From: Patescibacteria group bacterium
Lineage (GTDB): Bacteria > Patescibacteriota > Patescibacteriia > UBA9934 > GWF2-40-263
NCBI GenBank assembly: GCA_035290185.1
Contig: DATDUW010000022.1
Span: 1,579-65,578, forward strand
Direction: 5' to 3'
DNA: 64,000 nucleotides
Shown: positions 12,055-56,258 of the stretch, in pieces
Numbering within the stretch: position 1 is the stretch's first letter
How the letters are laid out: each line of letters starts with the position of its first letter
Notes under the pieces: generated by a model
The model's input: only the letters and a program-made list of their open reading frames with translations
What the model was told of the DNA's origin: nothing
The model's database searches: none
Program-made: the position numbers and the translations under genes

Positions 12055-12094
12055 ACCTCGTCCTATTTTTCTTAGGACGAGGTTTTCGTTTTTT
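12055..12094 (+). terminator. Rho-independent terminator
   Basis: ACCTCGTCCTA / TAGGACGAGG hairpin followed by TTTTCGTTTTTT. Confidence 0.7.
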
Positions 12095-12137
12095 AAAGAT
12101 TTTGTTATAATAGATCCATTCGAGATGTTAATCTGAT

Positions 12138-13034: not shown

Positions 13035-13056
13035 TTGCTCAAAAAATAGGGGGAGT

Positions 13057-15300: not shown

Positions 15301-15321
15301 TCTTTTTCTTTATCTATCCCT

Positions 15322-15699: not shown

Positions 15700-15729
15700 C
15701 GATTCAAAAACGAGGGAATTTTAAAAGAT

Positions 15730-16818: not shown

Positions 16819-16840
16819 TGTATTTTGAGGATAGCAATTT

Positions 16841-17839: not shown

Positions 17840-17861
17840 TTTTTCGCCACCACCAGATAGT

Positions 17862-18647
17862 ATGTTTTTTTCCTTAGGGGTTTTTTTTATCGGTTCCGTC
17901 TTGGGTAGCTTTCTTTCTTCCTTGGCCAATCGAGAGAAAAAGAATGAATCAAATTTGTTTGGTCGCTCTCATTGTGTCGAGTGTAGAAAAATGTTGCTAG
18001 CGAGAGACCTTATCCCCCTTATCAGCTTTTTTCTTCTCAAAGGTCGTTGTCGTTTCTGTCACCGACCGATCGGTTGGAGAGAACCCGTGGTCGAAATCGC
18101 GGTTGGTTTTCTCTTTTTGGTTGTCTGGTGGGTTCATGGAAGTGAAGGAATCGATGTGCCTCTTATTCGTGACCTTATTTTCACGACTTTTCTGTCCCTC
18201 CTTTTTTTAACAGATGCCTATGCAGGCGTTCTTCCTCATCGATTTACCATAACAGGTATTTTTCTTGCCGTCGGATTTCATTTCTTTGTTGGTATCGCTT
18301 CAATGAGTACCCTGTTTTTTACTATTCAAAATTTTTTTTTCGGCATGATGGTCGGCGGTGGATTTTTTGCTTTACAGTACTATGTATCACAAGGGCGTTG
18401 GACAGGTGGTGGAGACATTGGTATGGGGATACTTCTCGGAGCTATTCTTGGATTTTGGTCTAGCCTGTGGGCGCTTGCCCTCGCCTATATTTTAGGTGCC
18501 TTCTGGGCAATTTTTTTGTTGTTAAACAAAAAAATAGATGTAAAAGCCCAAATTCCTTTTGGTCCATTTCTTGCCACAGCCACGTGGATTTTTTTGTTGC
18601 TTTCCCAGGTGTCGAATAGCGGACTTTACGATTTTTTACGATTTTAG
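17862..18647 (+). CDS. pilD: Prepilin peptidase PilD (A24 family)
   Basis: ORF 17628-18647; internal Met at 17862 follows the upstream stop. N-terminal TM, cytoplasmic tetracysteine zinc motif (CVEC...CRFC), and polytopic membrane body with conserved Asp. Confidence 0.85.
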   Translation: MFFSLGVFFIGSVLGSFLSSLANREKKNESNLFGRSHCVECRKMLLARDLIPLISFFLLKGRCRFCHRPIGWREPVVEIAVGFLFLVVWWVHGSEGIDVPLIRDLIFTTFLSLLFLTDAYAGVLPHRFTITGIFLAVGFHFFVGIASMSTLFFTIQNFFFGMMVGGGFFALQYYVSQGRWTGGGDIGMGILLGAILGFWSSLWALALAYILGAFWAIFLLLNKKIDVKAQIPFGPFLATATWIFLLLSQVSNSGLYDFLRF

Positions 18648-18751
18648 CACGATCTCTAGACAATTTTATGAAGGCATAGTACTATTTTCCAAGGAAAAAT
18701 GATTTCTTTTTTTGTCAAAAGTTCCTTTTTTAAGAATTTAAATTAACACGT

Positions 18752-19234
18752 ATGCGCAAGGATTTTCAGAAAGGTTTCACCCTTATCGAACTGCTTATCG
18801 TAATCGCCATCATCGCGATTTTGGCGGCTGTTGTATTTGTCGTTCTTAATCCGACTCAACGTTTCTCGCAGGCTCGCAATGCACGCCGCCAAAGCGATGT
18901 GGAAAATATTGTTGCGGCCCTCAAAATTTCTCAAGTGGACAATAATGGCAGTTATCCATCAGCAGTTTCAACACTAACGAACGGGAAATTTTATGAAATA
19001 GGGACAGCTACGACTGGTTGTGATGCTGGTTGTACAACAAAGACCACGGAAGGGTCCTGTGTGGACTTGACTGCTGGGTTGGTGACAGGCGGGTATCTTG
19101 GAAGCATTCCCATGGAACCGACCAGCGGGACAGCTTCCAAAACCTTATATTACCTCTCAAAAAATGCCACAGGAACAATTGAAGTCGGGGCTTGTACCCC
19201 AGAATTAAGTACCGCTATTTCCGTTATTCGATAA
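18752..19234 (+). CDS. Type IVa major pilin
   Basis: N-terminus MRKDFQKGFTLIELLIVIAIIAILAAV is a canonical class III signal. C-terminal Cys pair forms a disulfide loop. Confidence 0.9.
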   Translation: MRKDFQKGFTLIELLIVIAIIAILAAVVFVVLNPTQRFSQARNARRQSDVENIVAALKISQVDNNGSYPSAVSTLTNGKFYEIGTATTGCDAGCTTKTTEGSCVDLTAGLVTGGYLGSIPMEPTSGTASKTLYYLSKNATGTIEVGACTPELSTAISVIR

Positions 19235-19256
19235 TTTCATTTTTAATATCTATTCT

Positions 19257-19655
19257 ATGTCAGAATTTGAACATCATTCTTCTGATGAGGTGGCACAAGA
19301 AGAAAAGAAAAATAACGTAAGAGATTTTTATCTTACGTTGCAAGAAAAAGCTGAAAAATTGGGATGTGTAGTGAGGTTTCCGGAAATGGAGCAAGATAAA
19401 AAAGTGAAAGACACAGCCGAAAGCAAGCTAGTCATTGAAAAGGATGGTGTTTATATTTTATTTAATGGTAAGACAATAGAAGAGGTTGCTAACAAAATTG
19501 GAGAAGAAGAAAAAAGTTCAAATCTTCTGGGAGAGCTTGTTAGAGGCTGTGGTGAAGATTTTGAATTTGACTCTGTAGCACTAAATAAACATGAATCTGG
19601 AGTAATAGGCAAAGATGGAAAAATTAGATCCATGCCAAATAGTTTGAGGACCTAA
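19257..19655 (+). CDS. Hypothetical acidic protein
   Basis: 132-aa ORF directly downstream of the pilin gene; no recognisable domain. Confidence 0.4.
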   Translation: MSEFEHHSSDEVAQEEKKNNVRDFYLTLQEKAEKLGCVVRFPEMEQDKKVKDTAESKLVIEKDGVYILFNGKTIEEVANKIGEEEKSSNLLGELVRGCGEDFEFDSVALNKHESGVIGKDGKIRSMPNSLRT

Positions 19656-19675
19656 CTAGTAGATACGTCTCGATC

Positions 19676-19870
19676 ATGTTCTGGATTGCAGTCGTTGGCT
19701 GGGTTTTTTTTACGATTCCTCTCCTGGCTTTTTTCGTCTTCAGCCTATGGATGATCAGCGAGGCGAGGAAGGATGATGATCAAATTGGCTCATTCATCGG
19801 CCTCCTCTTTTTGATTTGGGTGATTGGAATTGTTCTCCTTGCGGTTTCCTATCTTTCAAAGATGTTGTAA
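19676..19870 (+). CDS. 64-aa two-TM small membrane protein (copy 2)
   Basis: About 85% amino-acid identity to the 1295-1489 product, with long identical DNA stretches (tggatgatcagcgaggcga.gaaggatgatgatcaaattggc; cttgcggtttcctatctttca). Confidence 0.6.
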   Translation: MFWIAVVGWVFFTIPLLAFFVFSLWMISEARKDDDQIGSFIGLLFLIWVIGIVLLAVSYLSKML

Positions 19871-20046
19871 ATTCGTCTTGAAGTTTTTTTCTTTCTATAC
19901 TAGGGTGGGGTAAACTTAAATTTTAAGTCTATGAGAGATGCGGGAGGTCATCCTCAAGAAGTTCATCCGCTTCTGCTTTTTCTGGGTTGACCCTAGGCAG
20001 CGGAGGCAAAGCAAAAAACGATAAAAATAAATTATTCTGAAATCCT

Positions 20047-25358: not shown

Positions 25359-26885
25359 TTATCCGATTTTTTTCACTACTCCCTTGTCCGCATTGACTTC
25401 GACCAGATCGCCGTCATGCAGAACTTTGGTGGCGATTTTGGTTCCGACGACGCACGGGATGTGGAGTTCGCGACTGACAATGGAGGCGTGACAGGTAAGG
25501 CCTCCTTCGTCCGTGACAATAGCAGCAGCTTTTTTCATGGCAGTCACAATACTCGGAGTCGTTGCCACGGAGACAAGAATGTCTCCAGGCTGCATTTTTT
25601 GCATGTCCTCCGGCCTGTTGATAAGGCGGACGCTCCCCGTCGCTGTTCCCGGAAAGGCCGTGGAGCCGGAAAGTTCGGAAACGGAGGCCATCTCTTCGGA
25701 TGCTGATTGCAGGACATGGAGGGTGGAAAATTGTTTGGCCTCATTTCCAGAGATGACGATCGTTTCCCTCTCGTCCATGGAAACGAGGTGGTGTTTGTAC
25801 TGACGATCAAGGACAGATGGGTCAATTTTTCCTTCCAGAAGCGCTTCCCGAATCTGTTTTTGAGTTGCGGAACGTGCGTGTTTAAGAGAGACATCGAATC
25901 GTCGGCTGAACTCGCGGAAAAAGGATTCCATGTGGAAATAGGAATGGGATTGGTAATCCTTGCGCCGCGGCTTGGCCCAGACGTATTCGTTTACAAGAAG
26001 AAGAAGCCGTTTGGTCGATTCGTCCGGCCGGAGCTGTTCAAGATATTTTTTGCGTTCTTCGGCTAATCGGCATCGTTCCTCTTTTTTCCGTTGAGTCTCT
26101 CCTTCCGGTTGGATCCTTTTATGGAGGAGGTCTTGAAGGAACTCTACAAATTGCATTTCACCAAACGCCGGACCGGCGTAGACGTAGTAGACCCATCCAA
26201 ATTTTTCCGCATGTCCCCGAAGCGCTTCAGAAATTTCCGGAGCGGATTGTTGGAGCAGGGAAGGAATCTCGTTGGGTAGATGGTTTTCTAGCACGTCGCG
26301 GCAGGCCTTGTTTGAAAAACAACGCGGAGCAAGTTCGAGGAGGGCATCTTCCTGGTCTAAGGCAAAAGAGTTTTTCAATGGCGTTGTAAAGACCGCAAAA
26401 GCCCTTGCGGCTTCTTCCGGCGAAAGGCGAGAAGCGAGAAAAGTTTTCAAAAAAGATTCGAGAAACGAAACACCGCCGACTTCAAGCAGAGGAAGGAGAA
26501 TGCCGACGGCGTATTGACGCGCTTGGAGGTTGGCAAATCGTTCATAGAAATTCCAAAGGTCGGTTCCGCTCCATGAGGAAAGATTTGCGGAGCGGGCTTG
26601 GGATGTGAAACGATTCATCTCCTGTCCCCATTGTTCTGAACATTCGATGAGACGGTCGAGTTCTTCCGGATTTTGTTCGATCCGTTTTTGGAGGATTGCG
26701 CGATCTTTATTCCAGAGATCCATGTCCAGCAGATAGGCGATCGTGTCCTCGTGTGATTCAATCGCATAACCCGGATTGGGAAGATCAAAAAGCTCCGGCC
26801 AGAGGAAACCGGATTGGATCCAAATTTCATTTCGCATGAGCGGCGAATGGAAATCATGGGCAGCGGGGAGCAGTTTATTTTCCAT
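25359..26885 (-). CDS. PEP-utilizing-enzyme mobile (phosphohistidine swivel) domain protein with uncharacterised N-terminal domain
   Basis: C-terminal ~80 aa match the swivel domain (GDILVSVATTPSIVTAMKKAAAIVTDEGGLTCHASIVSRELHIPCVVG). The ~420-aa N-terminal region has no recognisable motif. Confidence 0.75.
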   Translation of the reverse strand: MENKLLPAAHDFHSPLMRNEIWIQSGFLWPELFDLPNPGYAIESHEDTIAYLLDMDLWNKDRAILQKRIEQNPEELDRLIECSEQWGQEMNRFTSQARSANLSSWSGTDLWNFYERFANLQARQYAVGILLPLLEVGGVSFLESFLKTFLASRLSPEEAARAFAVFTTPLKNSFALDQEDALLELAPRCFSNKACRDVLENHLPNEIPSLLQQSAPEISEALRGHAEKFGWVYYVYAGPAFGEMQFVEFLQDLLHKRIQPEGETQRKKEERCRLAEERKKYLEQLRPDESTKRLLLLVNEYVWAKPRRKDYQSHSYFHMESFFREFSRRFDVSLKHARSATQKQIREALLEGKIDPSVLDRQYKHHLVSMDERETIVISGNEAKQFSTLHVLQSASEEMASVSELSGSTAFPGTATGSVRLINRPEDMQKMQPGDILVSVATTPSIVTAMKKAAAIVTDEGGLTCHASIVSRELHIPCVVGTKIATKVLHDGDLVEVNADKGVVKKIG

Positions 26886-26888
26886 AGA

Positions 26889-27974
26889 CTAAGATAGTCG
26901 GCGAACAACTCCTTTATGTGCGTTTACTTCGACGAAATCCCCATCCTTCAGAACCTTCGTCGCGATTTTTGTTCCGATGATGCAAGGGACTCCAAGCTCG
27001 CGAGACACGATCGCGGCATGACACGTAATTCCGCCTTCGTCTGTAATGATTGCGACCGCTTTTTTGATGGCGGGGAGATACCACGGCGTTGTCATGGGAG
27101 CGACAAGAATGTCCCCTTGTTCAACTTTTCCAAGTTCTTCCCGATTAAAAACGATCTTCACTTTCCCCTTTGCCATTCCCACGTTTGCGGGATTTCCTTT
27201 TATTTCTCCAGGCTGGCTAACAGCGGTTTGATCCTGCGGAAGGATGTAGCTCCTTTTTGAAAGCTCTTTCCCCAAATCATTTTCAAAAATCAATTGTCCG
27301 TCGATATAAGCGAACGGTATCGCACGCCGTTTTTCCAGGTCATTTTTGTTTAACTTTCCACTCTGAAGGGACTCAAGGAGTTCGGAATGACTGACGTATC
27401 TTGTGTAAACGTCGTCCCATCCTTGCAGCTCAAATAAGCGATGGATGATATGGAGGATCGTTTCTATGGAACGATCAAAGAACGGGTCGGTCTCCGTCCG
27501 CCATTTTCGACATTGATTAAAAACGTTTTCGCTGAAAAGATGGGTTGTTTCCTGCCACAGGGGAAGAAGGTAGGTTGTTACAATGCCTGGGAAGCCTTGG
27601 ACAAACGAAGCCTCCATTCGACGAAGGGCATCCAAGGCCTCTTGGGTCGTTGCCAACGGCCACTGTCGGATGTCGGCACGTGTTTCCAACGCTGCTTTTT
27701 GTCTTTCATAAGTTTCCGGAAGTCTTGCTTCATTTCCTTCGATCCATTTCGCAAGACCAAAAGGAATTTCCTCCATGCGTTTAGAATCCCGATAGCACTC
27801 TACCGTCCCTTTCGTAAACAGAAAGAGGTTTTCTGGAAAAGGGAATCCAAAGAAACACTCCGTTTCATTTGTGATTCCTTCATACCAGCTTTCCACGCCG
27901 ATAAGAGGAGCCTCACGGGTGATGATTTTTACGAAGGGAACGAGAGGTTGATTTTCTGAGGGAGGAGATTTCAT
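26889..27974 (-). CDS. Second PEP-utilizing mobile-domain protein (paralogous C-terminus, different N-terminal domain)
   Basis: C-terminus GDILVAPMTTPWYLPAIKKAVAIITDEGGITCHAAIVSRELGVPCIIG. The N-terminal ~270 aa are unrelated to those of the 25359 gene. Confidence 0.75.
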   Translation of the reverse strand: MKSPPSENQPLVPFVKIITREAPLIGVESWYEGITNETECFFGFPFPENLFLFTKGTVECYRDSKRMEEIPFGLAKWIEGNEARLPETYERQKAALETRADIRQWPLATTQEALDALRRMEASFVQGFPGIVTTYLLPLWQETTHLFSENVFNQCRKWRTETDPFFDRSIETILHIIHRLFELQGWDDVYTRYVSHSELLESLQSGKLNKNDLEKRRAIPFAYIDGQLIFENDLGKELSKRSYILPQDQTAVSQPGEIKGNPANVGMAKGKVKIVFNREELGKVEQGDILVAPMTTPWYLPAIKKAVAIITDEGGITCHAAIVSRELGVPCIIGTKIATKVLKDGDFVEVNAHKGVVRRLS

Positions 27975-28016
27975 AGGGAAGAAGATTTGGTTTTGTTCTG
28001 TTTGGCCTTCAGTAGA

Positions 28017-28994
28017 CTAGAGTGTCGTCACTGGCCTTGACTGCGTGATAAAGAATACCCCAGCCTCCTGGGCCCATTCGATGTCGCAGGGGAAGCCGTA
28101 GTGTTTTTCGATTCCTTGGCAGATGTCCGCGAGTTTGCGGATCTGTCCCCCATCGATTTTTTGGCGAGTTCGTTTGTCTTGCGGAACCCGCACCTGTTCA
28201 TTGCCTCCGTCTTCTTTGCGAATCAGCCCGCCTGCGTCCTCTCTTGGACTCCGGCGGGCAAGCATGATCTCCTGCTCGCTGACGTTGACATCCAGAAGCG
28301 TCCCATCCCGCTTGTCCAGGACATAGGAGTCGGGCGTGACCACACCACCGACAATGTACTCGCCCAAGCCCCAACAGGATTCGATGATCATTTGATTCGG
28401 ATCTTTCGTAACGGGATGTACGGTAAAGCAGATGCCGGAAATTTCAGAGTTCACCATTTTTTGGATAACCACGGCCACGGAGACATGACTCTTCCGCATG
28501 CCTTTTTCATTGCGATAGACAATGGCCCTTGGGGTAAACAGAGATGCCCAGCATTTTTTGACATTGCCCAGCAGGGTTTTTTCGGTCGTGTTGAGGTAGC
28601 TTTCGAGCTCCCCGGCCCAGCTAGCTGTGGAGGAATCTTCGGCCGTGGCAGAGGAACGCACGGCAACGAATTTTGCATTGAGCTCTCGGAAGGAGGTGAG
28701 GACCTCTTCCTCAATGTCGCGTGGGAACCGGGCGTCATGGATAAGGTCATGGATGACGCGCGAGGCCCGCTCCACCGAGGCCACGTCTTCGTAGTTAACC
28801 TGATCGAGCTGGGCTTCGATTTCTTGAACCAGATTCGTCTCGCGTAGGAATTGGTCAAAGGAGGGAGCCAGCACAACAAACCCTGGAGGAACAGGAATTC
28901 CTGCCTGGGTCATCTCTCCAAGTGATGCTCCTTTGCCTCCGGCTAGGTGCGTATCGTTTTTGGAGAGGTCGGAAAAGGGGCGGGTGAATGGCAT
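28017..28994 (-). CDS. PPDK_N-type ATP-grasp nucleotide-binding domain protein (PEP synthase / pyruvate phosphate dikinase N-terminal domain as a stand-alone protein)
   Basis: N-terminus FSDLSKNDTHLAGGKGASLGEM is the PPDK_N hallmark. Length (325 aa) fits the ATP-grasp domain only. Confidence 0.8.
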   Translation of the reverse strand: MPFTRPFSDLSKNDTHLAGGKGASLGEMTQAGIPVPPGFVVLAPSFDQFLRETNLVQEIEAQLDQVNYEDVASVERASRVIHDLIHDARFPRDIEEEVLTSFRELNAKFVAVRSSATAEDSSTASWAGELESYLNTTEKTLLGNVKKCWASLFTPRAIVYRNEKGMRKSHVSVAVVIQKMVNSEISGICFTVHPVTKDPNQMIIESCWGLGEYIVGGVVTPDSYVLDKRDGTLLDVNVSEQEIMLARRSPREDAGGLIRKEDGGNEQVRVPQDKRTRQKIDGGQIRKLADICQGIEKHYGFPCDIEWAQEAGVFFITQSRPVTTL

Positions 28995-46116: not shown

Positions 46117-48195
46117 ATGCCTTCATCTTGGAAACGTCAGAAACGCCTTTCGGCCCACCGGGCCGCTCAGAGCTCTGTTGCGGGGAAACGATGGAAGACG
46201 TCGGTCTTGGCTGCTTTTTTTCTCGTTGCAACGGTCGGTTTGGCCGTTTTGAATTTTCCCAGTTCGTGGAATCGAGGCCTCGCCTCTGCCGGTTCTCTCG
46301 TCGGTCGTGACCTTTCGTTCGTAAATCTGTCCGAAAACCCTTTTCGTCTCGGTTTGGATCTGCAGGGAGGCACCCATCTGGTCTATGAAGCGGACATGGC
46401 CCAAATTCCTTCCGAAGATCGCGAGAATGCTCTTCAGGGCGCACGCGACGTGATTGAACGACGTGTGAATGCCTTTGGGGTGGCTGAACCGGTTGTCCAG
46501 ACAACATCCGCTGGAGGTTCCTATCGCGTTTTTGTGGAATTGGCGGGTGTTTTGGACGTGAAAGAAGCTATTAAACAGATCGGAGAAACGCCGATTTTGG
46601 AATTTAAGGAAGAGGGGCAACAGCTGGACCGTGCACCAACGGAAGAGGAAACAGCCGAGCTGGCGCGGCGGCAAAACGAAGATCGTGGGCGTGCCCAAGA
46701 GGTGTTTGTCAATGTACAGGCAGGCACAGATCCTGGCACGGCTCCGGATGGAAAACCGTACACCTGGCAAAGCGTGAAGAGTGCGACTCTCTCCCTTGTG
46801 GCTTACGCCCCGATTCTCAAAGCTATCGAGGATGCCAGCACTCCTGCCGGAAGTCTTGTCACGTCTGTGATCGAGACGCCGGAAGGGTTGAACATCGTTC
46901 GATTCGTAAAAAAAGATCCGGCCAAAGAGCTGCTCCTCTCCCATCTCCTCATTTGTTTTGAAGGAAAGATGGCTTGTACGAATCCGATTCCGTCTTTGGA
47001 GGCGGCAACGAAAATTCGCGATCTCCGTGCGCAGGCGACTCCAGAAAATTTTGCCGTGCTTGCGGATCAGAACTCAACAGACAGGACCACACCGGGCGGT
47101 GACCTCGGATGGTTGTCTCCTGGGCAGACCATTCCTGCCTTTGAATCCGCTGCTTCTGCCCTTTCCGTCGGGAATATTTCCGACGTTGTTGAAACAGATT
47201 TCGGCTATCATCTCATTTTCAAACGGGAAGAGCGCCCGGTGACCGTTTATGCTTTTGAGCGGATCCTCCTTCCCCTTACATCGATAACGGATATCGTTCC
47301 ACCTGCTTCGCCTTGGAAGAATACAGAGCTTTCGGGAAAGCAGCTGAAGCGCGCGACCGTCCAATTCGACCAGCAAACAGGGACACCGATGGTTTCCTTG
47401 CAATTCAACGATGAGGGTTCAAAGCTGTTTGGAGAGCTGACAGCCAAAAATGTTGGGAAACCCGTTGCTATTTTTTTGGACGGAGCGCCGATCTCGACGC
47501 CGGTGGTCAATGAAGCCATTTATGGCGGGAGTGCGGTCATTACGGGAGATTTTACCATTGAAGAGGCTAAAACACTGGCACAACGCCTGAATGCCGGAGC
47601 TTTGCCGGTTCCCGTTCAACTTCTTTCCCAAGAGACTGTCGGTCCAACGCTTGGCCTTGCTTCCCTGACTAAGAGTGTTCAAGCGGCTTTGATCGGATTT
47701 TTGTTGGTGTCGCTGTTTATGATTGTGGTCTATCGATTGCCTGGCGTTTTGGCAACTCTGGCTCTTGTTTTCTATGCCATGTTGAACCTGTTTATCTATC
47801 GGTTGTTCGGTGTGACCGTGACTCTGGCTGGCGTTGCCGGGCTTGTGCTTTCACTGGGGATTGCTGTGGATGCTAACGTCCTTATCTTTGAACGGTTTAA
47901 GGATGAGTTTCGATCCGGTCGTGACCTTGCCTCTTCTTTGGAAGAAGGGTTCAGGCGTGCCTGGCCGCCTATCCGCGACGGGCATGCGACAACGCTTATC
48001 AGCGCTCTGGTTCTATTCTCTTTCAGTTCGAGTTTTGTCAAAGGGTTTGCCTTAACGTTGGCCATCGGCGTTTTGCTCAGCCTTTTTACAGCCATTGTCG
48101 TCGTCCGTGCCTATTTGAGGACGATTCGGGGATGGCGGTGGTTTAAGGCCCCGTGGTTTTACCGCACGGGTCGGTCGTCTGTTTCTGAACGCTAG
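46117..48195 (+). CDS. secD: Protein translocase subunit SecD with an inserted PpiC/parvulin-type PPIase domain
   Basis: SecD GLDLQGGTHL motif, P1-head region and six C-terminal TM helices. An embedded parvulin signature (DLGWLSPGQTIPAFESAASALSVGNISDVVETDFGYHLIFK) sits between them. Confidence 0.85.
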   Translation: MPSSWKRQKRLSAHRAAQSSVAGKRWKTSVLAAFFLVATVGLAVLNFPSSWNRGLASAGSLVGRDLSFVNLSENPFRLGLDLQGGTHLVYEADMAQIPSEDRENALQGARDVIERRVNAFGVAEPVVQTTSAGGSYRVFVELAGVLDVKEAIKQIGETPILEFKEEGQQLDRAPTEEETAELARRQNEDRGRAQEVFVNVQAGTDPGTAPDGKPYTWQSVKSATLSLVAYAPILKAIEDASTPAGSLVTSVIETPEGLNIVRFVKKDPAKELLLSHLLICFEGKMACTNPIPSLEAATKIRDLRAQATPENFAVLADQNSTDRTTPGGDLGWLSPGQTIPAFESAASALSVGNISDVVETDFGYHLIFKREERPVTVYAFERILLPLTSITDIVPPASPWKNTELSGKQLKRATVQFDQQTGTPMVSLQFNDEGSKLFGELTAKNVGKPVAIFLDGAPISTPVVNEAIYGGSAVITGDFTIEEAKTLAQRLNAGALPVPVQLLSQETVGPTLGLASLTKSVQAALIGFLLVSLFMIVVYRLPGVLATLALVFYAMLNLFIYRLFGVTVTLAGVAGLVLSLGIAVDANVLIFERFKDEFRSGRDLASSLEEGFRRAWPPIRDGHATTLISALVLFSFSSSFVKGFALTLAIGVLLSLFTAIVVVRAYLRTIRGWRWFKAPWFYRTGRSSVSER

Positions 48196-48200
48196 TTTTT

Positions 48201-49118
48201 ATGTCTGTTATTTCTTCCTTTCCTTTTGTCCGTCTGCGCCGCGTTTGGTTTGCCTTTTCCGCGATGCTGATTCTGGCGAGCCTTGTGGTTCTCGCGGTTT
48301 TTGGTCTTCGCTTCAGCATTGATTTTACCGGAGGGAGTTTGCTTGAGGTCCGTTTTTCCGACGAGGTTCCCTCAACACAGGAGATCGGCACGCGAGCTTC
48401 CGAAGCTGGCTATGCTGCAGCCACCGTTCAAACGGCAGGAGTTGGAAAAGCGATTCTCCGCCTTCCAACGCTTTCGGAAGAGCAACACCAGGCCCTTCTC
48501 GGATCCCTTCAGCAGGCCTATTCCGGTCTGACGGAAGAACGGTTTGATTCCATTGGGCCTGCTATTAGCGGAGAGCTGCGCCGAAGCGCCTTTATCGGCG
48601 TCGGTGTTACCCTTTTCTTGATCGGTTCCTATATCGCTTGGGCGTTTCGGAAAGTTTCCGAGCCGGTTAAATCATGGAAATACGGGATACTGACGGTTTT
48701 GTGTGCTCTCCACGATGTGGTGGTTCCCCTCGGGGCGTTTGCACTCTTGGGAGCCTTTTTCCATTGGGAAGTGGGAACAGCCTTCATTGCTGCCCTTTTG
48801 ACGATTCTTGGTTATTCGATCAGCGATACGGTCGTGGTTTTTGACCGGACGCGGGAAAATCTGCTGCATCATCCGGAAGGGACGTTTGGGGACGTGGTGG
48901 AACGCAGTATCCGTCAGACGTTCGTCCGCTCCCTTAATACGAGTCTTACGACCTTGTTAGCCCTGGCGGCCATTGCCGTGTGGGGAGGAGAAAGTACCCG
49001 TCCGTTTGCCGTGGCCTTGGGTATCGGCATTCTGATCGGGACTTATTCGTCCATTTTTATCGCGAGCCCCTTGCTCGTCTCTTGGGAAGAATGGCGGAGG
49101 AAGCGAAGGGTGGCTTGA
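48201..49118 (+). CDS. secF: Protein translocase subunit SecF
   Basis: N-terminal TM plus periplasmic domain and five C-terminal TM helices with the conserved SecF LD...GYS...D motif; directly downstream of secD. Confidence 0.85.
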   Translation: MSVISSFPFVRLRRVWFAFSAMLILASLVVLAVFGLRFSIDFTGGSLLEVRFSDEVPSTQEIGTRASEAGYAAATVQTAGVGKAILRLPTLSEEQHQALLGSLQQAYSGLTEERFDSIGPAISGELRRSAFIGVGVTLFLIGSYIAWAFRKVSEPVKSWKYGILTVLCALHDVVVPLGAFALLGAFFHWEVGTAFIAALLTILGYSISDTVVVFDRTRENLLHHPEGTFGDVVERSIRQTFVRSLNTSLTTLLALAAIAVWGGESTRPFAVALGIGILIGTYSSIFIASPLLVSWEEWRRKRRVA

Positions 49119-49201: not shown

Positions 49202-50902
49202 ATGTTCGACATTTTGTTTTCGATTCCCGATCATTTTTCGTTTGAGGAATTTTTCCGTCAGCCGATCGATGTCATTGTTTTTCAACTGATCCTTTTTTTT
49301 GGTTGGATTCCGTTCGTAGGTCTGCTTGTTTGGGGTTATCTTCAAACGTACCTTCAGTTTAAGCAGGAAAAATACGTGAAGGGGTTAAAGAATATCATGC
49401 TGGCTATTGATGTTCCGCGCATGACCGAACAAAGCCCCAAGGCCATGGAGAACATGTTTGCGACCTTGCAGGGCGCATTTTCTACGCCGACCTGGAAGGA
49501 GAAGTGGATCCTGGGAAAGATGCCGGCGAAATTCAGTTTTGAGATCGTTTCACGGGACGGTTATACGCAGTTTTATGTCCGTTGCGAAACCAAGTACCGC
49601 GATCTCATTGAGGCTGGGATTTACGCCCAGTACCCGGATGCCCAAATTATGGAAGCAGAAGACTACGTGACAGATGTCCCTTCGGAGTTTCCCGATAATG
49701 AATGGAATTTGTGGGGAACGGAACTCACTCTGGCAAAGGACGAGTTTATGCCCATCCGGACCTGGCCCTTGTTTGAGCACCCTCTGACCCAGGAACTCAA
49801 GGATCCGCTGGCTATTATTTTGGAACAGATGGGACGTATGCGTCCAGGAGAGGTTTTTTGGTTTCAGATCCTTTGCGTTCCGTTCAGTCAGGAATGGAGG
49901 GAGGCCGGAATTAAGTATATCAGCAAGATTTACGGAATTAAGGAAACCGTAAAAAAATCCAAATGGGAAGAGGCCTTAGCCTCTACGCTCTGGCTTCCAC
50001 ACCAGGTTTTGGAAGAGACCACCGGAGCGAATTTGCTCGGATTGCTGGGGGTGAATTCCGGCGACCAAGCCAAGCCAAAAGACGAAGACATGTGGAAAGC
50101 CTTTAAAATTACGCTTCAGGAAAAGACTCAAGTGGAGGGGATTGCGAATAAGGTTTCCAAACTGGGATTCAAAACGAAGATTCGCATGGTCTATGCGGCC
50201 AAAAAGTCGGTTTACAGTAAGGGAACCCGCGTGCCCTTTGTCAAAGGCATGCTTTTGCAATTTTCCCACCAGGATTTGAATTCCTTTAAGATGGTGGGTT
50301 CTCAAATGCCAAAGGACGATTATTTTTGGCAGGCATGGTCTTATGGAAAGAGACAGACAAAATTGGTCAAAGCCTACAAGAGGCGTCTCTTGACCGTTGG
50401 TTCCACCCCAAAGATTTTGAACATTGAAGAGCTGGCTACTCTTTTTCACTTCCCGTCTATTACCGTTAAAGCCCCGCTTATTAAGAAGACCGAGGCACGT
50501 CGCGCTGAGCCTCCGGTCGGGCTTCCCGTGGCTTTCGGGGATGAAAAAGATCTTTTTTCGTCTTTTCCTCCGAAAGTTTCTGAACCAGTGTTTGTGCCTT
50601 CCTTGCCGGTAGAACCGCCTTTAGAACCAGAAATCCGTTTGCCTGGGCCGGCGGTCTCACCGCCCATCCGCCGGGTTGATCCCTCGCCCGCGCCAGTCAA
50701 AGAATCTTCTTTTTCCGTTTCTCTTCCTCCGGTTCCAGATCGGAAGAGCACGATTCCGGATGCCATTCGAGTCTTGATTGAGCCGGGAGTGGAATTTGAG
50801 GATGTCATGCGAGCAAGATTAACGGACCAGACAGGAGGAAAAGCATCGAAAACGGACGTGGAAGACGAAGGAGGAAAACCGCCTGAAAATTTGCCCGTGT
50901 AA
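49202..50902 (+). CDS. Membrane-anchored hypothetical protein with Pro-rich C-terminal tail (first gene of the ATPase/Cys-rich cluster)
   Basis: ORF 48980-50902 overlaps secF. The Met at 49202 gives a single N-terminal TM (VIVFQLILFFGWIPFVGLLVWGYL), then ~400 aa of unknown fold, then PxxP-rich tail. Confidence 0.55.
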   Translation: MFDILFSIPDHFSFEEFFRQPIDVIVFQLILFFGWIPFVGLLVWGYLQTYLQFKQEKYVKGLKNIMLAIDVPRMTEQSPKAMENMFATLQGAFSTPTWKEKWILGKMPAKFSFEIVSRDGYTQFYVRCETKYRDLIEAGIYAQYPDAQIMEAEDYVTDVPSEFPDNEWNLWGTELTLAKDEFMPIRTWPLFEHPLTQELKDPLAIILEQMGRMRPGEVFWFQILCVPFSQEWREAGIKYISKIYGIKETVKKSKWEEALASTLWLPHQVLEETTGANLLGLLGVNSGDQAKPKDEDMWKAFKITLQEKTQVEGIANKVSKLGFKTKIRMVYAAKKSVYSKGTRVPFVKGMLLQFSHQDLNSFKMVGSQMPKDDYFWQAWSYGKRQTKLVKAYKRRLLTVGSTPKILNIEELATLFHFPSITVKAPLIKKTEARRAEPPVGLPVAFGDEKDLFSSFPPKVSEPVFVPSLPVEPPLEPEIRLPGPAVSPPIRRVDPSPAPVKESSFSVSLPPVPDRKSTIPDAIRVLIEPGVEFEDVMRARLTDQTGGKASKTDVEDEGGKPPENLPV

Positions 50903-50904: not shown

Positions 50905-53016
50905 ATGCCTGCTTACGAAGATCACGATCATGAGAAGGACGTCATCTATTTTGCCGCGACGAATTATCGCAATCAGATGCGGAAATTTGGCATTCGCACG
51001 GATGATCGGCGTCGACACATGTATGTGATCGGGAAGACAGGCATGGGAAAGACGACGCTCCTCGAGAACATGATCTTGGCGGATATTTATAAGGGCCATG
51101 GATGTGCTTACGTTGATCCCCACGGGGACACGGCTGAAAAGATCATTGATTTTATTCCGGAATGGAGACAGAAAGACGTTGTCTATTTCAATCCGTCCGA
51201 TTTTGAATATCCGATGGGTTTTAATATTCTCGAGTCGTATGACCCCAACACCCGGCACGTTATTGCCGCCGGACTCATGGGGGTATTTAAAAAGATCTGG
51301 CCGGATGTGTGGAGCGCTCGCATGGAGTACATCCTCAACAATTCGATTTTGACGCTTTTGGAAAATCCAGGCAATACGCTTTTGGGGATCAATCGTCTGC
51401 TGGTTGATCGAGATTTTCGGGTAAAAATGGTTGGAAAGGTGAAGGATCCAGTGGTGAAATCCTTTTGGATCACGGAGTTTGAACAATGGGAGCCAAAGTT
51501 TCGCACCGAGGCTATTGCCCCGATTCAGAACAAGGTCGGACAGTTTCTTGCAACATCCCTTGTGAGAAACGTTGTTGCCCAGGTCACGTCGACCATTGTG
51601 CCGCGCAAGTTCATGGACGAGAGCAAAATTTTTATTGTCAATCTTTCTAAGGGACGGATCGGAGAAGATGCCATGAAACTTTTGGGTGGAATGCTCATTA
51701 CGAAAATGCAACTTTCCGCCATGGAACGCGTAGACATCCCCGAGAAGGAACGGCGAGACTTCTATCTCTATATCGATGAGTTTCAAAATTTTGCCACAGA
51801 GAGTTTTGCTTCCATTCTTTCTGAGGCTCGCAAATATCGGCTGGCTTTGATCATGGCCCATCAATACATTGAACAGTTGACCGAAGAAGTCCGTGATGCT
51901 GTGTTCGGAAACGTCGGGTCTCTCCTTACTTTTCGTGTTGGTTCTCCGGATGCGCTCTTTTTGGAAAATGAGTTCATGCCCACGTTTACGCATGAGGACT
52001 TGGTCAACCTGGCCAAATATGAAATTTACCTGCGGCTCATGATTAATGGGGTTGCCTCTGAGGCCTTCTCGGCCCTAACGTTGCCTCCGATTGCCCAAAC
52101 AACGCATTCAACGGATTCGGTGATTGCAAGTTCGCGCGACCAATTCGCCAGGCGTCGATCCGACGTGGAAGCGGCGATTCTTCAATGGAGCGAGATGAAC
52201 CCCGAAGAGACGGGAGCAGAGGAAGTGGAAAAGCTTTTCGATGAGGCCGATGCCAAGCGCAAGGCTGCAAAAAAGTTTGGCAACCGGCCCGTGTTCGAAT
52301 ATGACTGTTCGCGCTGTGGCAAACACATGGTTTTGCCCGTAGAGTTGGATAAGAGCCGGCCGATCTACTGCGAAACGTGTATTGAGGCTGTGCGAGAGGA
52401 TCGCCGTCAAGGGAAAAAGCCGGAAGGAGCCGTTGGCTCCGCATCCTCCCCGAGTCCAGTCCCAACCCCCCAGACCGTTGTCAGCCCCGAGACGCCGCCG
52501 TTGGTTCCGCCGCCTCCGCCTCCTCCGACGGCCCCTGCTCCAGCAGTGAAGCCTTTGTCCGCTCCCAAGGCGCCTTCGTTACAAGCTGGGACATTCGTTG
52601 TAAAAAAAACAGAAGGAGAAATCAGTCTTGCCTCCCTTCAGGAAAAGACAAAGACCCTGCCTGAGCCGTTGCCACCGCAACCTATTCCTTTAGAACTTCC
52701 GAAAACCGGAATGGATTTTCTCTCTTCTCAAAAAGCAAAGATTCCCCCTGTTTCTCCTCTGCCTGCTGCTGCGGCTGATCCTCTTTCTTCTTCGCAAAAA
52801 CGGAAACGGCGGCATAAGCATTCCTCCTCCATCTCTTCGGCTTCTCCCCCTCCTCCATCCCCCCCGCTAGGATGGAAAAATGACCCGGCCCCCCGGCGAC
52901 CCGGCCCGGCAAACCCCGTCTCCGGACCCCGTGTTTCCCCGCCCACGCCGGCATCTTCTGCCCCTGTCAAACCCCCTCCATCGCGTCCAGATCCCGGTGA
53001 AATTTTTCCCTGGTAG
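50905..53016 (+). CDS. TraD/VirD4-like (type IV coupling protein family) P-loop ATPase without TM anchor, with C-terminal zinc ribbon and proline-rich tail
   Basis: Walker A GKTGMGKTT, Walker B YLYIDEFQNF, arginine-finger region ARKYRLALIMAHQ. C-x2-C...C-x2-C ribbon, then a ~200-aa Pro-rich low-complexity tail. Confidence 0.75.
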   Translation: MPAYEDHDHEKDVIYFAATNYRNQMRKFGIRTDDRRRHMYVIGKTGMGKTTLLENMILADIYKGHGCAYVDPHGDTAEKIIDFIPEWRQKDVVYFNPSDFEYPMGFNILESYDPNTRHVIAAGLMGVFKKIWPDVWSARMEYILNNSILTLLENPGNTLLGINRLLVDRDFRVKMVGKVKDPVVKSFWITEFEQWEPKFRTEAIAPIQNKVGQFLATSLVRNVVAQVTSTIVPRKFMDESKIFIVNLSKGRIGEDAMKLLGGMLITKMQLSAMERVDIPEKERRDFYLYIDEFQNFATESFASILSEARKYRLALIMAHQYIEQLTEEVRDAVFGNVGSLLTFRVGSPDALFLENEFMPTFTHEDLVNLAKYEIYLRLMINGVASEAFSALTLPPIAQTTHSTDSVIASSRDQFARRRSDVEAAILQWSEMNPEETGAEEVEKLFDEADAKRKAAKKFGNRPVFEYDCSRCGKHMVLPVELDKSRPIYCETCIEAVREDRRQGKKPEGAVGSASSPSPVPTPQTVVSPETPPLVPPPPPPPTAPAPAVKPLSAPKAPSLQAGTFVVKKTEGEISLASLQEKTKTLPEPLPPQPIPLELPKTGMDFLSSQKAKIPPVSPLPAAAADPLSSSQKRKRRHKHSSSISSASPPPPSPPLGWKNDPAPRRPGPANPVSGPRVSPPTPASSAPVKPPPSRPDPGEIFPW

Positions 53017-53022
53017 CCTTTT

Positions 53023-54444
53023 TTGACTCCTATGCCCCCTGAAATTCAGGAAAATCTCGTCGCACGCCGTCACGAACCGCCGGCTGCGCTTCCCACCAAA
53101 GATAATACGCCTGTTGAAGAAATTTCGTTGTTCGGAAGAACGAATTTTAGTTCCGGCTATGTGGTGAAACGTCAAATTTTTGGTCTGAAACGACAGGATC
53201 GCATGCGGCACCTGTACGTGATCGGAAAAAGCGGGGTCGGAAAAACGAAATTGCTTGAGCAACTCATCCGCGCGGACGCGTTTTTTGGTCACGGCGTTTG
53301 CGTGATCGATCCGCACGGCGATCTGGTTCAGAACATCCTTGATTTCATTCCAGAACACCGCCTGGAGGACGTGATGATCATCAATCCGGGGGACCGCGAA
53401 TTTCCCATTGCCTTCAATCCGATTGCCAACGTGACCGAAGACGACCGCTTTCCCGTGACCAACGAGCTCATCGAAATTTTTAAAAAACAGTTCGGGTCTG
53501 ATTGGAATCCGCGCATTGAACATCTGCTAAGGTTTACAACCCTGGCCATGATCGATTTTCCGGGTGGAACCATTAACGGCATGGTGTCCCTCCTTTCCAG
53601 TGGTCGTTTCCGCAGCCGGGTGATCGAACACGTTAAGGATAGTGTCGTGCGCCGTTTTTGGGCCATTGAGTTTCCGGAGTGGTCGCAGCGCTACGATGCC
53701 GAGGCTGTGAGTCCCCTCTTGAATAAGTTGGGCCAGCTTTTGGCTGATCCCCTCATGCGCCGTATTTTTGGACAGCAGCAGAACCGGGTGGATTTCTTTG
53801 ATCTCATGCAGCAGCGCCGGATCGTCCTGGTCAATTTGGCCAAGGGACTTTTGGGGGATGATGTCAGTTCTTTTTTCGGGGCCCTGGTTATTACCAAACT
53901 CAAGCAGTCAGCCATGAAACGCGTGACGCTCCCCCCTCATCTGCGTCTGCCGTTCTACCTCTACGTCGATGAGTTTCAAAATATCGCCACCAAGACGTTT
54001 GAAAACCTGTTGGCCGAGGCACGCAAGTTCGGCATCGCCATTACGGTAGCAAACCAAAATCTTTCACAACTCGACTATTCGTTGAAGGCTTCGTTGTTCG
54101 GGAATGTCGGATCCATCATTACGTTCCAGGTGGGGGCGGATGATGCAAAAATACTTCAGGATGAGCTGGCGCCGATTTTTGAATTTCGGGATATTATCAA
54201 TCTGGGCGAGCGGGAGATTTACGTGAAGATGACGATTGAGGGAAAACGCTATGATCCGTTTTCCGCCGAGGTACTCGCCGTGAATGATTCCAAACACCCG
54301 TCCTATTTTGAACAGATTCTCCATCGGTCTCGAGAACGCTGCGCCATGCCGCGCGCAAGCGTAGAGGCTGCGCTGGCCCAGGAAGAACAGGAATCCAACG
54401 GTTTTCCGTCCGCACCGGTTTCTCAGGACGAGATTATTGTTTGA
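53023..54444 (+). CDS. Second TraD/VirD4-like P-loop ATPase (paralog of 50905 gene, no ribbon or tail)
   Basis: Walker A GKSGVGKTK, Walker B YLYVDEFQNI, ARKFGIAITVANQ; collinear with the core of the upstream ATPase. Confidence 0.75.
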   Translation: MTPMPPEIQENLVARRHEPPAALPTKDNTPVEEISLFGRTNFSSGYVVKRQIFGLKRQDRMRHLYVIGKSGVGKTKLLEQLIRADAFFGHGVCVIDPHGDLVQNILDFIPEHRLEDVMIINPGDREFPIAFNPIANVTEDDRFPVTNELIEIFKKQFGSDWNPRIEHLLRFTTLAMIDFPGGTINGMVSLLSSGRFRSRVIEHVKDSVVRRFWAIEFPEWSQRYDAEAVSPLLNKLGQLLADPLMRRIFGQQQNRVDFFDLMQQRRIVLVNLAKGLLGDDVSSFFGALVITKLKQSAMKRVTLPPHLRLPFYLYVDEFQNIATKTFENLLAEARKFGIAITVANQNLSQLDYSLKASLFGNVGSIITFQVGADDAKILQDELAPIFEFRDIINLGEREIYVKMTIEGKRYDPFSAEVLAVNDSKHPSYFEQILHRSRERCAMPRASVEAALAQEEQESNGFPSAPVSQDEIIV

Positions 54445-54482: not shown

Positions 54483-56222
54483 ATGTCCCAAACGCCGAAC
54501 TACGACACTAAAGTGAAAGTGATTCTCGACGCCACGATTCCCGGCGAGCGGACATGCGAACTCACGGGAGAGAAGTGGAACATGACCGACGAGGAAATCG
54601 GTTGGTATCGCAAGTTCAACGTGCCGCCGTCGCGACGGAGCCCATTGACCCGCTGGTGGACCTTAACGGGCTTTTGGTTGGCCTATCAGTGGTGGTGGAA
54701 CAAACACGCGGAAACCGGCAAACCCATCTTTACTTACGTCCATCCGGCAACCGGACTAAAAGTTCTTCCGGATAAGGAATGGTTTGAGAAGGATTTTTCT
54801 TCCACGAATCGGCATTACGACGCGAACCGGTCTTTTTTCCAGCAACTTCGGGAAATTCAACTTCAAATTCCCCTCCAAGCTTCCCAGAACACCAAAGAAC
54901 CGGAACAGAGCATCTCCCTTTTTTCCTTCGGCGACGTAAACAGCTATTTCGTAACGTTCTGTCGGTCGCGCGACACGTTCTATTCCATTTGGGGACTGGA
55001 CGTCGAAGATTCCGCTGAAATTTGGAATTCGAGCTCAATCTCCCGCTGCTATCACGTTTTTGATTCGCACCGGATGCATTTCTGTCAGTTCGCGCAGGCT
55101 TGTTTGGACTGTTCAAATAGCGCATTCCTATTTGATTGCAGGAATTGCGAATACTGCTTTGGGGCCGCGAACAAGCGCAATCGCAAGTATCTTTGGTTCA
55201 ATGAACAGCTTTCAAAAGAAGAATGGGAGGCCAGAAGAAAGGAAGTGGATTTTGGAAAGCGGTCGGTTTTGGAGAAATGGAAGAAGGCGTTTGAAGGCCT
55301 GATGAAAACCCACGCCGTCTGGCCGGAAAATTTTAATGAAAAGGCCCAGGAGAGCGTGGGGGAATATCTCACGAACGTGCATCGGATCCGATTCGGCTAC
55401 GCGTGCATGCATGGGCCTCACGATTGCTATCAGGTGATCGGTTGCAACGGAGATACGTATGATTGCGCCATCGGCGGATGTTTTGATTCCAACAATTGCT
55501 ATTACACCACCAATGCCACTTCCTGCTCTTTCATTCGGTTTTCTTATAACTGCTCCCGTTCCCTGGATCTGGAATACTGCCTTTACTGCTACGATTGCGA
55601 ATCGTGCTTCGGATGCGTTGGAATACGGCGGAAGAAATTCCATATTTTCAATAAGCCGTACGGGGAAGAAGAGTACTGGCGGAAAGTAGACGAGCTGAAA
55701 TCTTCTATGCTCGAACGCGGGGAGTACGGGGAATTCTTTCCCCTTTCCATGTCCCCAAGCTGCTTTGAGGCGTCCGGAGCTACCATGTACGTTGGCGCCC
55801 CTAGAGAGATCGGGCAAGAAAAATTGGGAGCCATGGATTTTGATTCGGATGAAGAGGGAGCGTTCGGCGAAGAGATCCGTCGTGCCGAACCAAAAACCAT
55901 TGAAGAGATTCCAGATTCTGTTGATGATCTGGCGGCGGAGACGTGGGCCAACGTTCCAATCTATGATCCCGAGCTGCGCAGGCGTTTCGTCTATCTCAGA
56001 CCGGAGATTGAATTCTATCATCGTCACCGGATCGGTCCTCCGCGCCGTCATTTCATTCTCCGGACGCAAGAGCTGCATCTTGCCTCCAACAGCGGGCGGT
56101 TTGAACAAACGACGTGCGGAAACTGCGGAAAAGGACTGCTGACGGCGACGAATCTTACTTATTCGGATCGGAACGTCTTCTGTCGGGAATGCTATCTCAA
56201 TTATCTCGAACGGTGTGGTTAG
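54483..56222 (+). CDS. Cys-rich ~580-aa protein, paralog A of a tandem family
   Basis: Conserved N-terminal module (TPNYDTKVKVILDATIPGERTCELTGEKWNMTDEEIGWYRKFNVPPS), two internal C-x2-C-x2-C-F-G-C ... F-N-x-x-Y-x-EEEYW repeats, and C-terminal zinc ribbon (CGNCGKG...FCRECY). Confidence 0.8.
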   Translation: MSQTPNYDTKVKVILDATIPGERTCELTGEKWNMTDEEIGWYRKFNVPPSRRSPLTRWWTLTGFWLAYQWWWNKHAETGKPIFTYVHPATGLKVLPDKEWFEKDFSSTNRHYDANRSFFQQLREIQLQIPLQASQNTKEPEQSISLFSFGDVNSYFVTFCRSRDTFYSIWGLDVEDSAEIWNSSSISRCYHVFDSHRMHFCQFAQACLDCSNSAFLFDCRNCEYCFGAANKRNRKYLWFNEQLSKEEWEARRKEVDFGKRSVLEKWKKAFEGLMKTHAVWPENFNEKAQESVGEYLTNVHRIRFGYACMHGPHDCYQVIGCNGDTYDCAIGGCFDSNNCYYTTNATSCSFIRFSYNCSRSLDLEYCLYCYDCESCFGCVGIRRKKFHIFNKPYGEEEYWRKVDELKSSMLERGEYGEFFPLSMSPSCFEASGATMYVGAPREIGQEKLGAMDFDSDEEGAFGEEIRRAEPKTIEEIPDSVDDLAAETWANVPIYDPELRRRFVYLRPEIEFYHRHRIGPPRRHFILRTQELHLASNSGRFEQTTCGNCGKGLLTATNLTYSDRNVFCRECYLNYLERCG

Positions 56223-56230: not shown

Positions 56231-56258
56231 AAACCCCGTTTACACGGGGTTTGGTTGT
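56231..56258 (+). terminator. Hairpin with short T-tract after paralog A
   Basis: AAACCCCGT-ttaca-CGGGGTTT followed by GGTTGTCT. Weak U-tract. Confidence 0.45.

Follow-up and report, generated by a model that had tools for sequence, protein, structure and literature searches.

A stretch of 64,000 nucleotides from one contig of a Patescibacteria group bacterium (DATDUW010000022.1; hereafter the window, in whose positions all coordinates and strands are given) carries two adjacent genes for ATPases of the type IV coupling protein (T4CP) kind, named here ATP1 and ATP2. Immediately upstream lies a gene for a protein of the DUF8128 family. All three belong to a tightly packed run of plus-strand genes that extends from secD onward; 2 bp separate the stop codon of the DUF8128 gene from the start of ATP1, and the gap between ATP1 and ATP2 is 6 bp. 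The features that matter most for what follows are these:

49202..50902, plus strand: DUF8128 gene, 566 amino acids (aa), recognised through an independently called, 100% identical 566-aa protein (P0121) annotated with PF26449
49271..49339, plus strand: single N-terminal transmembrane (TM) helix of DUF8128, residues ~24-46, Kyte-Doolittle 19-residue maximum 2.41
50882..50899, plus strand: C-terminal peptide PENLPV of DUF8128, from the family alignment
50905..53016, plus strand: ATP1, a T4CP-type ATPase of 703 aa without TM helix, from Pfam, hydropathy and alignment to TrwB by hhalign
51031..51054, plus strand: Walker A motif of ATP1, GKTGMGKT, located as a motif and present in 70 of 70 ATP1 homologs
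51763..51780, plus strand: Walker B motif of ATP1, YLYIDE, with D291 and E292 invariant in the ATPase alignment
52306..52380, plus strand: putative zinc ribbon of ATP1, CxxC-x17-CxxC, treble-clef type, residues 468-492, from the motif, with PF23477 and TIGR04272 below cutoff
52381..53013, plus strand: proline-rich tail of ATP1, 211 aa, ending in GEIFPW (52996-53013)
53023..54444, plus strand: ATP2, a T4CP-type ATPase without TM helix, 473 aa from a TTG start or 470 aa from the ATG at 53032

The original prediction, made from the letters of the window alone, placed two T4CP-like ATPases here, and both open reading frames (ORFs) are real. The Pfam models TrwB_AAD_bind (40.9 bits for ATP1 and 43.6 for ATP2, gathering cutoff 20.5) and TraG-D_C (23.1 and 28.4 bits, gathering cutoff 22) recognise the two proteins above threshold. 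Aligned with residues 118-465 of R388 TrwB, the profile of the ATPase family matches over 324 columns (hhalign probability 95%, E 4e-8), and the TrwB region holding the all-alpha domain falls inside that alignment, at low per-column confidence. The same profile meets TrwK/VirB4 at the P-loop only, with an hhalign probability of 4.8%, and the best sequence matches in the PDB are TrwB and DotL. The NCBIfam conjugation models all stayed far below their cutoffs: those for T4CPs (TraD, VirD4-like CD1115 and TrbC), with cutoffs of 250-800 bits, yielded no more than 38.5 and 47.9 bits, and VirB4_plasma 14-16 bits against a cutoff of 590. The best match from any library is the PADLOC profile for mad8, a gene of the MADS operon (ATP1 at E 3.5e-18, ATP2 at E 2.6e-17, 64 bits), which outscores the Pfam T4CP matches for both ATPases. 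This match indicates that soluble members of the same ATPase clade exist elsewhere. The gene mad8 belongs to the eight-gene mad operon, and the text of the MADS preprint holds no description of a mad8 domain.

Two ways in which the assignment might have failed had been named beforehand, namely that the proteins were HerA- or FtsK-type DNA translocases, or that one copy was a decayed pseudogene. What was found is a DUF87/HerA score of 20.7 and 21.3 bits, under the Pfam cutoff of 23.2, no FtsK_SpoIIIE match whatsoever, and intact Walker motifs in both proteins, with GKSGVGKT and YLYVDE in ATP2. Over 423 residues the two ATPases share 40% identity (E 7e-115), which makes them the tandem paralogous pair that had been announced. 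As far as sequence goes, ATP1 and ATP2 are T4CP-type ATPases, clearly TrwB-like and not VirB4-like. The absence of a membrane anchor, also predicted, is borne out as well. A hydrophobic segment of TM grade was found in neither protein (Kyte-Doolittle 19-residue maxima 1.28 and 1.24, against 2.4-2.65 for SecD, SecF and DUF8128 in the same window), and only 3 of 70 ATP1 homologs reach 1.6 anywhere. In its residues ATP1 is very strongly conserved: among the 120 matches listed, homologs across Patescibacteria are 63-84% identical, and the best, at 79-84%, are labelled, if named at all, Candidatus Uhrbacteria or Patescibacteria.

The original prediction left aside the DUF8128 gene upstream, as well as five Cys-rich paralogs downstream. 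DUF8128 is a large family, of which a profile search returned 2,865 cluster representatives; PF26449 is precomputed on the homologs listed, 2 of 120 having no domain on record. Of 83 DUF8128 homologs, 75 have a TM-like segment and 8 are borderline (1.47-1.58). The acidic side N-terminal to the helix and the basic stretch past it predict that the large domain faces the cytoplasm. An AlphaFold2 (AF2) model of DUF8128 (predicted local distance difference test, pLDDT, 72; predicted template modelling score, pTM, 0.62) is confident for residues ~10-430 and disordered over 430-515. When this model was compared with the PDB by Foldseek, chains of R388 TrwK/VirB4 took all ten top places (E down to 2e-5, probability 1.0, ~450 columns) and, apart from TrwK/VirB4, nothing fell below E 0.02. 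No P-loop occurs in DUF8128, and Pfam scans of 25 members of the family at E values up to 10 gave noise only. That DUF8128 might be a degenerate paralog of the ATPases was rejected at the sequence level, since hhalign against the ATPase profile gave a probability of 0.2%. We propose that DUF8128 is the membrane anchor and scaffold of the motor, supplied in trans to ATP1.

This proposal draws its main support from comparative genomics. The DUF8128 alignment was scanned against one genome per GTDB species, which yielded at least 590 relatives; all counts of loci given here come from the best 80, in whose ORFs the partners were scored by hidden Markov model (HMM) searches. These 80 loci belong to Uhr-, Falkow-, Kerfeld-, Komeili-, Buchanan- and Magasanikbacteria and to Paceibacter. 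In 69 of 73 evaluable loci, each from a different species-level genome, the gene that directly follows DUF8128 codes for an ATP1-type ATPase. The other conserved linkage is to the genes for SecD and SecF. Of 59 evaluable loci, 47 have this pair upstream of DUF8128 at a distance of at most 2.5 kb; in the window the distance is 83 bp, counted from the secF stop codon:

46117..48195, plus strand: secD, from Pfam and NCBIfam matches, the conserved upstream neighbour of the module
48201..49118, plus strand: secF, from TIGR00966 (276 bits, cutoff 160) and synteny

Three unrelated long contigs (L001, L002 and L004) share the order SecD, which includes a peptidyl-prolyl isomerase, then SecF, DUF8128 and ATP1, followed by an optional ATP2 and by one or two optional proteins of 579 aa. 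Their flanks consist of housekeeping genes, and the downstream neighbour is UppP or a hydrolase. The conservation of the neighbourhood in related genomes, which the original prediction had suggested looking into, is therefore real, both for the adjacency of DUF8128 and ATPase and for secDF. In 34 of the 80 loci a protein of ~400 aa with a sigma-70 region 4 and a HARE-HTH domain (resembling the delta subunit of RNA polymerase) is encoded between secF and DUF8128; it is confined to lineages other than Uhrbacteria (e.g. L079:8599-9888, L041, L052, L061 and L076) and absent from the window. Many third-party annotation records of metagenome-assembled genomes that contain the module (L006, L012, L019 and others) bear the title 'uncultured Gammaproteobacteria bacterium', and one the title 'Acutalibacteraceae', names that look like placeholders or the result of mis-binning.

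A further argument comes from proteins in which the two parts are joined. Two fused paralogs of ~850 aa were found, L079:1041-3599 (852 aa) and L070:3-2543; L053 and L082 hold partial copies at their edges. In both full-size proteins a TM helix at about residues 20-45 precedes a complete DUF8128 domain, and a T4CP-like ATPase follows that is 40-45% identical to ATP1. In the DUF8128 part, residues 63-442 of DUF8128 align with residues 61-408 of the fused protein at an hhalign probability of 99.7% (E 6e-26). The fused genes sit among cysS, dnaX and metK and not among genes of a type IV secretion system (T4SS). In the L079 copy the Walker A and B patterns are unmatched, and this copy may be catalytically degenerate. 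Because of the fusion and of the near-universal adjacency, DUF8128 and ATP1 are treated here as two parts of one machine; and since ATP1 has no TM segment, its neighbour has one, and the paralog unites them, the ATPases are presumably not free-floating. The fused layout of TM helix, DUF8128 and ATPase seems to mirror the known VirB3-VirB4 fusion, an analogy in line with the fold match of DUF8128.

Beyond its ATPase domain ATP1 bears the two additions that the original prediction had read from the sequence, a zinc ribbon and a proline-rich tail of ~200 residues. The ribbon, CSRCGKHMVLPVELDKSRPIYCETC, has four cysteines at the spacing CxxC-x17-CxxC. The profiles TIGR04272 and PF23477 score it at 22.9 and 22.4 bits against cutoffs of 36 and 27, and many ATP1 homologs bear a precomputed PF23477 annotation. 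The ribbon (C[ST]RC..LPVELDRSRPIYCEDC) is present in 119 of the 120 closest ATP1 homologs listed and in 52 of the 67 complete ATP1 proteins from the more diverse loci. A domain with this spacing binds zinc in small proteins of Methanosarcina mazei (PMC12704099); the literature found on CxxC-x17-CxxC domains reports zinc binding in archaeal small proteins and nothing further on function. The tail that follows is 25.6% proline. In homologs the region after the ribbon ranges from 50 to 474 aa and varies in sequence, with a conserved C-terminal end, whose consensus is D[DE][IV]FPW exactly in the subclade that bears ATP2 and G(Q/E)xhxF[DE] in most other lineages. DUF8128 is built alike: a variable proline-rich linker leads to PPNLP[VILF], which in most of the 80 loci stands at the C-terminus or close to it. 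ATP2 has neither ribbon nor long tail; it ends in DEIIV in the window and in (D/E)x(I/V)(I/V)V in its family. Within the 80 loci each of these C-terminal motifs is confined to its own family. A variable linker that leads to a conserved end peptide suggests a tether to a partner, and the proline-rich tail of ATP1 is best read as such a flexible tether with a peptide docking to a putative partner. The wall-spanning role once considered for it has to be given up, because the tail sits on a cytoplasmic protein without TM helix.

We favour, with a probability of roughly 0.55, the view that DUF8128 and ATP1 together make up a single translocation ATPase tethered to the membrane, each protein contributing one half; this ATPase would be peculiar to Patescibacteria and have a fixed place in their chromosomes. 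DUF8128, held in the membrane by its single N-terminal helix, would offer a cytoplasmic scaffold domain of VirB4-like fold; ATP1, of TrwB/VirD4 type, would by homology form a hexameric ring and dock on DUF8128 at the membrane. The disordered proline-rich linkers of both proteins, with their short end peptides, most likely tether these parts to one another or to a further partner, and the zinc ribbon of ATP1 is a candidate module for binding substrate or partner. The motor would pass a polymer on to a membrane channel whose genes lie elsewhere, or take one over from it. As cargo we prefer nucleic acid or nucleoprotein, the main alternative being protein exported alongside SecDF. An envelope or export role is argued by the context of secDF and UppP. 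Nucleic-acid cargo is argued, weakly, by T4CP ancestry and the ribbon, and also by the sigma-70 region 4/HARE-HTH neighbour in many lineages and by the dependence of these organisms on imported nucleic acids: Patescibacteria cannot make their own nucleotides, and competence genes are common among them.

Several observations weigh against this view. In 4 of the 73 evaluable loci DUF8128 has no adjacent ATPase, housekeeping genes taking its place, and 15 of 67 complete ATP1 proteins do without the ribbon, which is therefore not essential to the core function. The link between DUF8128 and VirB4 connects one predicted model with one PDB protein, at low TM-scores (~0.27); the DUF8128 profile finds no match among PDB sequences, and hhalign against TrwK gives a probability of 0.4%. 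None of the genes of the module codes for a membrane channel, and DUF8128 has a single TM helix. The evidence about cargo is split, the secDF linkage pointing to protein export. Finally, a recent survey reports the T4CP homolog of S. epibionticum as non-essential (PMC12102498), and the function of the module may thus be conditional.

The second ATPase is a more local affair. ATP2 is found in only 8 loci, all of one Uhrbacteria subclade (L001, L004, L006-L008, L015, L019 and L026). In all 8 its Walker motifs are intact and the ribbon is never present. Its identity is 39-44% to ATP1 proteins as against 30-35% to the ATPase of the fused paralog, and we read it as a duplicate of ATP1 that appears to evolve fast. 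In 5 of 6 evaluable loci the next genes code for Cys-rich proteins of ~579 aa. In the window this family forms an array of five tandem paralogs, 39-46% identical:

54483..56222, plus strand: Cys-rich paralog 1, 579 aa, 100% identical to P0389, ending in a CxxCGK..CxxCY ribbon
56481..58229, plus strand: Cys-rich paralog 2, from the family alignment, HMM score 925
58222..59967, plus strand: Cys-rich paralog 3, whose real start is the ATG at 58222 and not the TTG at 58108
60698..62437, plus strand: Cys-rich paralog 4, from the family alignment and HMM
62442..64000, plus strand: Cys-rich paralog 5, at least 519 aa, running past the window end, HMM score 726

The family comprises at least 1,229 proteins, all labelled hypothetical and present in several copies per Uhrbacteria genome, and has no match in Pfam, NCBIfam or PADLOC. 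All aligned members close with a CxxC..CxxC ribbon resembling the one in ATP1. A confident AF2 model (pLDDT 86, pTM 0.84) displays two blocks of short repeated beta-strands, reminiscent of a beta-helix, with no significant fold match in the PDB, where left-handed beta-helix enzymes, LpxD and GlmU, come closest (E 0.014, probability 0.11). Tandem pairs of these genes also occur elsewhere, at L086 (beside Mur and FtsW genes), L087 (beside LeuRS and ComEC) and L088. Their presence at other housekeeping loci weakens the case for the array as an obligate partner of ATP2 and makes the tie suggestive, not strict. Cys-rich paralog 1 is possibly an accessory of ATP2, and it is an attractive idea that ATP1 would carry its ribbon in cis while ATP2 would be served in trans by the ribbon-bearing Cys-rich proteins. 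In our reading, ATP2 and the array were added as a specialisation of this lineage and do not belong to the core of the machine.

Other explanations have been weighed for the same genes. The strongest rival sees in ATP1, with or without ATP2, the remotely encoded coupling protein of the chromosomal Patescibacteria T4SS (VirB4, TrsD, VirB3 and VirB6), with DUF8128 as adaptor. The ATPases are indeed T4CP-type by sequence, and a VirB4-like fold, if the model of DUF8128 is right, could slot into an inner-membrane complex containing VirB4; the survey mentioned above adds that T4CP genes often lie far from virB4 and that VirB4, like the T4CP homologs, is widespread among members of the phylum (PMC12102498). 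However, the same survey reports that in S. epibionticum transposon sequencing found the T4SS genes essential for epibiotic growth, and t4cp not (PMC12102498). Moreover, the conserved linkage is to secDF and not to T4SS genes, and an own anchor together with a fused paralog suggests a self-contained unit. We regard this rival as unlikely, if by no means negligible. A role as accessory protein-export motor, acting with SecDF and SecYEG on unfolded protein, takes its force from precisely that linkage, from the downstream neighbours, which are envelope genes and mainly UppP, and from the fact that T4CPs translocate proteins too, as they do in T4SS effector systems. Yet to our knowledge no known Sec accessory belongs to this ATPase family, and the interposed sigma-70 region 4/HARE-HTH gene, together with the 12 of 59 loci without nearby secDF, means that the linkage may be inherited gene order and not function; protein export by such a route is distinctly improbable. 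A pump of FtsK or HerA type, working in chromosome segregation or repair, would suit the housekeeping context, shared membership of the ASCE superfamily and the weak DUF87/HerA scores. It was rejected on the profile scores, which stay below cutoff or are lacking while the full-length alignment goes to TrwB, and the S. epibionticum homolog, non-essential according to the survey already cited (PMC12102498), agrees poorly with it, so that very little credence is left to it. Least credible of all is that the ATPases are cytoplasmic anti-phage defence proteins resembling mad8 or DndH. Their best PADLOC match is mad8, with weak matches to DndH and HerA, but no other MADS or Dnd gene was found, DUF8128 and the Cys-rich protein have no PADLOC match, and phylum-wide synteny beside housekeeping genes is unlike a defence island; the reading was rejected on genomic context.

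The relation between the two ATPases raises a question of its own, which the original prediction had answered with either a hetero-hexamer or specialised roles. Specialised roles now appear the more likely. An obligatory hetero-hexamer is made plausible by adjacent genes, by two intact sets of Walker motifs in 40%-identical paralogs, and by the ATP1 end, where ..FPW has replaced ..F[DE] in precisely the ATP2-bearing subclade. Against it, ATP2 occurs in only 8 of ~70 loci that bear an ATPase and elsewhere ATP1 is the sole ATPase of the module; the motif switch is a single phylogenetic event; and a separate specialised ring fits at least equally well an ATP2 devoid of ribbon and tail and accompanied by the Cys-rich array. 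The obligatory assembly thus seems rather unlikely. On the boldest reading, the module might be a self-contained, T4SS-independent motor of the cytoplasmic membrane that pulls host RNA or DNA into the cell and so provides the missing energising step of nucleic-acid scavenging, with the ribbon as a nucleic-acid handle and ATP2 and the Cys-rich proteins as lineage-specific cargo adaptors; taken as a whole, this would be a long shot.

Set beside known systems, the tethered two-part motor that we favour is familiar in its engine and unusual in its chassis. With the T4CPs TrwB, VirD4, TraD and DotL the ATPases share a nucleotide-binding domain homologous over its whole length, with a similar distance between Walker A and B. 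Unlike these, ATP1 and ATP2 have no N-terminal TM domain, the anchor being a separate DUF8128 protein, and ATP1 adds ribbon, proline-rich linker and C-terminal peptide; furthermore, the module has no relaxase or mating-pair formation (Mpf) neighbourhood and is chromosomal and conserved across the phylum, whereas T4CPs reside on mobile elements. DUF8128 resembles VirB4/TrwK in its predicted fold, and the fused paralog reproduces the sequence of a membrane-proximal N-terminal domain followed by an ATPase. The differences are the absence of sequence similarity, an ATPase that is T4CP-like, the separation of anchor and ATPase into two genes in the window, and the lack of VirB3, VirB6 and VirB8 nearby. 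As for mad8 and DndH, they are soluble ATPases of the same clade, but the present module has no methyltransferase or nuclease partner and does have one that is anchored in the membrane.

Part of this family has been counted before. Quinonero-Coronel et al. (2025) list 5,713 VirD4-like T4CP homologs in 2,918 Patescibacteria genomes, of which only 148 are near virB4, and consider that exaptation of these homologs cannot be ruled out (PMC12102498). The orphan homologs of the survey are almost certainly the proteins described here, and its ratio of about two per genome would fit ATP1 with ATP2, or ATP1 with the fused paralog (PMC12102498). By contrast with the present analysis, the survey gives counts and distance to virB4 only (PMC12102498); DUF8128 as a partner, the synteny with secDF, the fusion, the ribbon, the end peptides and the set of ATP2 and Cys-rich proteins were found described neither in the passages of it that were searched nor in a search of full-text literature. 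A literature search for 'DUF8128' returned no paper. On balance, the module would be a lineage-wide, two-part, membrane-tethered motor of T4CP type, with an architecture that we have not found described before.

Much of bacterial diversity belongs to the Patescibacteria, which have tiny genomes and must take macromolecules or building blocks from host bacteria. In such organisms a highly conserved, chromosomally fixed T4CP-family ATPase with its own anchor is a testable candidate for part of the machinery by which material crosses membranes. The module exists in split and in fused form, without surrounding conjugation genes. It would represent a new way to build a T4CP-type motor, with anchor and VirB4-like scaffold on a separate polypeptide and disordered linkers ending in short peptides, and the split architecture bears on how the VirB4 and VirD4 ATPases diverged. 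A 2026 preprint describes uptake of host RNA by Patescibacteria and leaves the machinery unresolved (10.64898/2026.06.21.733656). Should the module prove to be only the remote coupling protein of the known Patescibacteria T4SS, the outcome would be more modest, and DUF8128 would still be a newly recognised T4SS component.

The rest of the window is ordinary chromosome and encodes DnaX, PBP2, a Mur ligase, MgsA, kinases and the machinery of type IV pili. This pilus cluster, which the original prediction had located ~35 kb upstream, lies 33-46 kb upstream (PilB at 4246-5940, PilC at 15730-16818, PilM and a prepilin peptidase). Its statement that relaxase, VirB4 and VirB6 genes are missing also stands: none was matched by Pfam among the 40 window ORFs scanned. 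The supposition that this is not a conjugation module is borne out by the housekeeping genes around it, by the lack of any relaxase or Mpf gene and by synteny shared among at least 69 genomes.

Some smaller features of the window deserve mention. In SecD a PPIC-type peptidyl-prolyl isomerase is inserted at about residues 260-385, in the periplasmic region between SecD_1st and the P1 head, and the same SecD-PPIC fusion occurs in L001, L002 and L004. A scan of 45.3-64 kb for promoters and terminators returned counts equal to the shuffle expectation, the sole structural cue being a hairpin after Cys-rich paralog 1. This hairpin (56231-56252, AAACCCCGT GTAA ACGGGGTTT) has a perfect 9-bp stem, begins 9 bp past the stop codon of that gene and is followed by a gap of 258 bp; it is probably the end of a transcription unit running from secD to Cys-rich paralog 1. 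Between Cys-rich paralogs 3 and 4, an ORF of 235 aa (59976-60683) resembles a transposase of the tyrosine type associated with repetitive extragenic palindromic (REP) elements (NF047646 51 bits, cutoff 80; weak Y1_Tnp). On the minus strand, at 25359-28994, an enzyme resembling pyruvate, phosphate dikinase (PPDK) or phosphoenolpyruvate (PEP) synthase seems to be split over three consecutive ORFs, one with PPDK_N and then two that each end in a PEP-utilizers mobile domain. Base composition, finally, is uneven along the window: G+C is 0.41-0.47 in positions 1-20000, where the type IV pilus cluster and a histidine kinase are encoded, and ~0.48-0.54 in most of 20001-64000.

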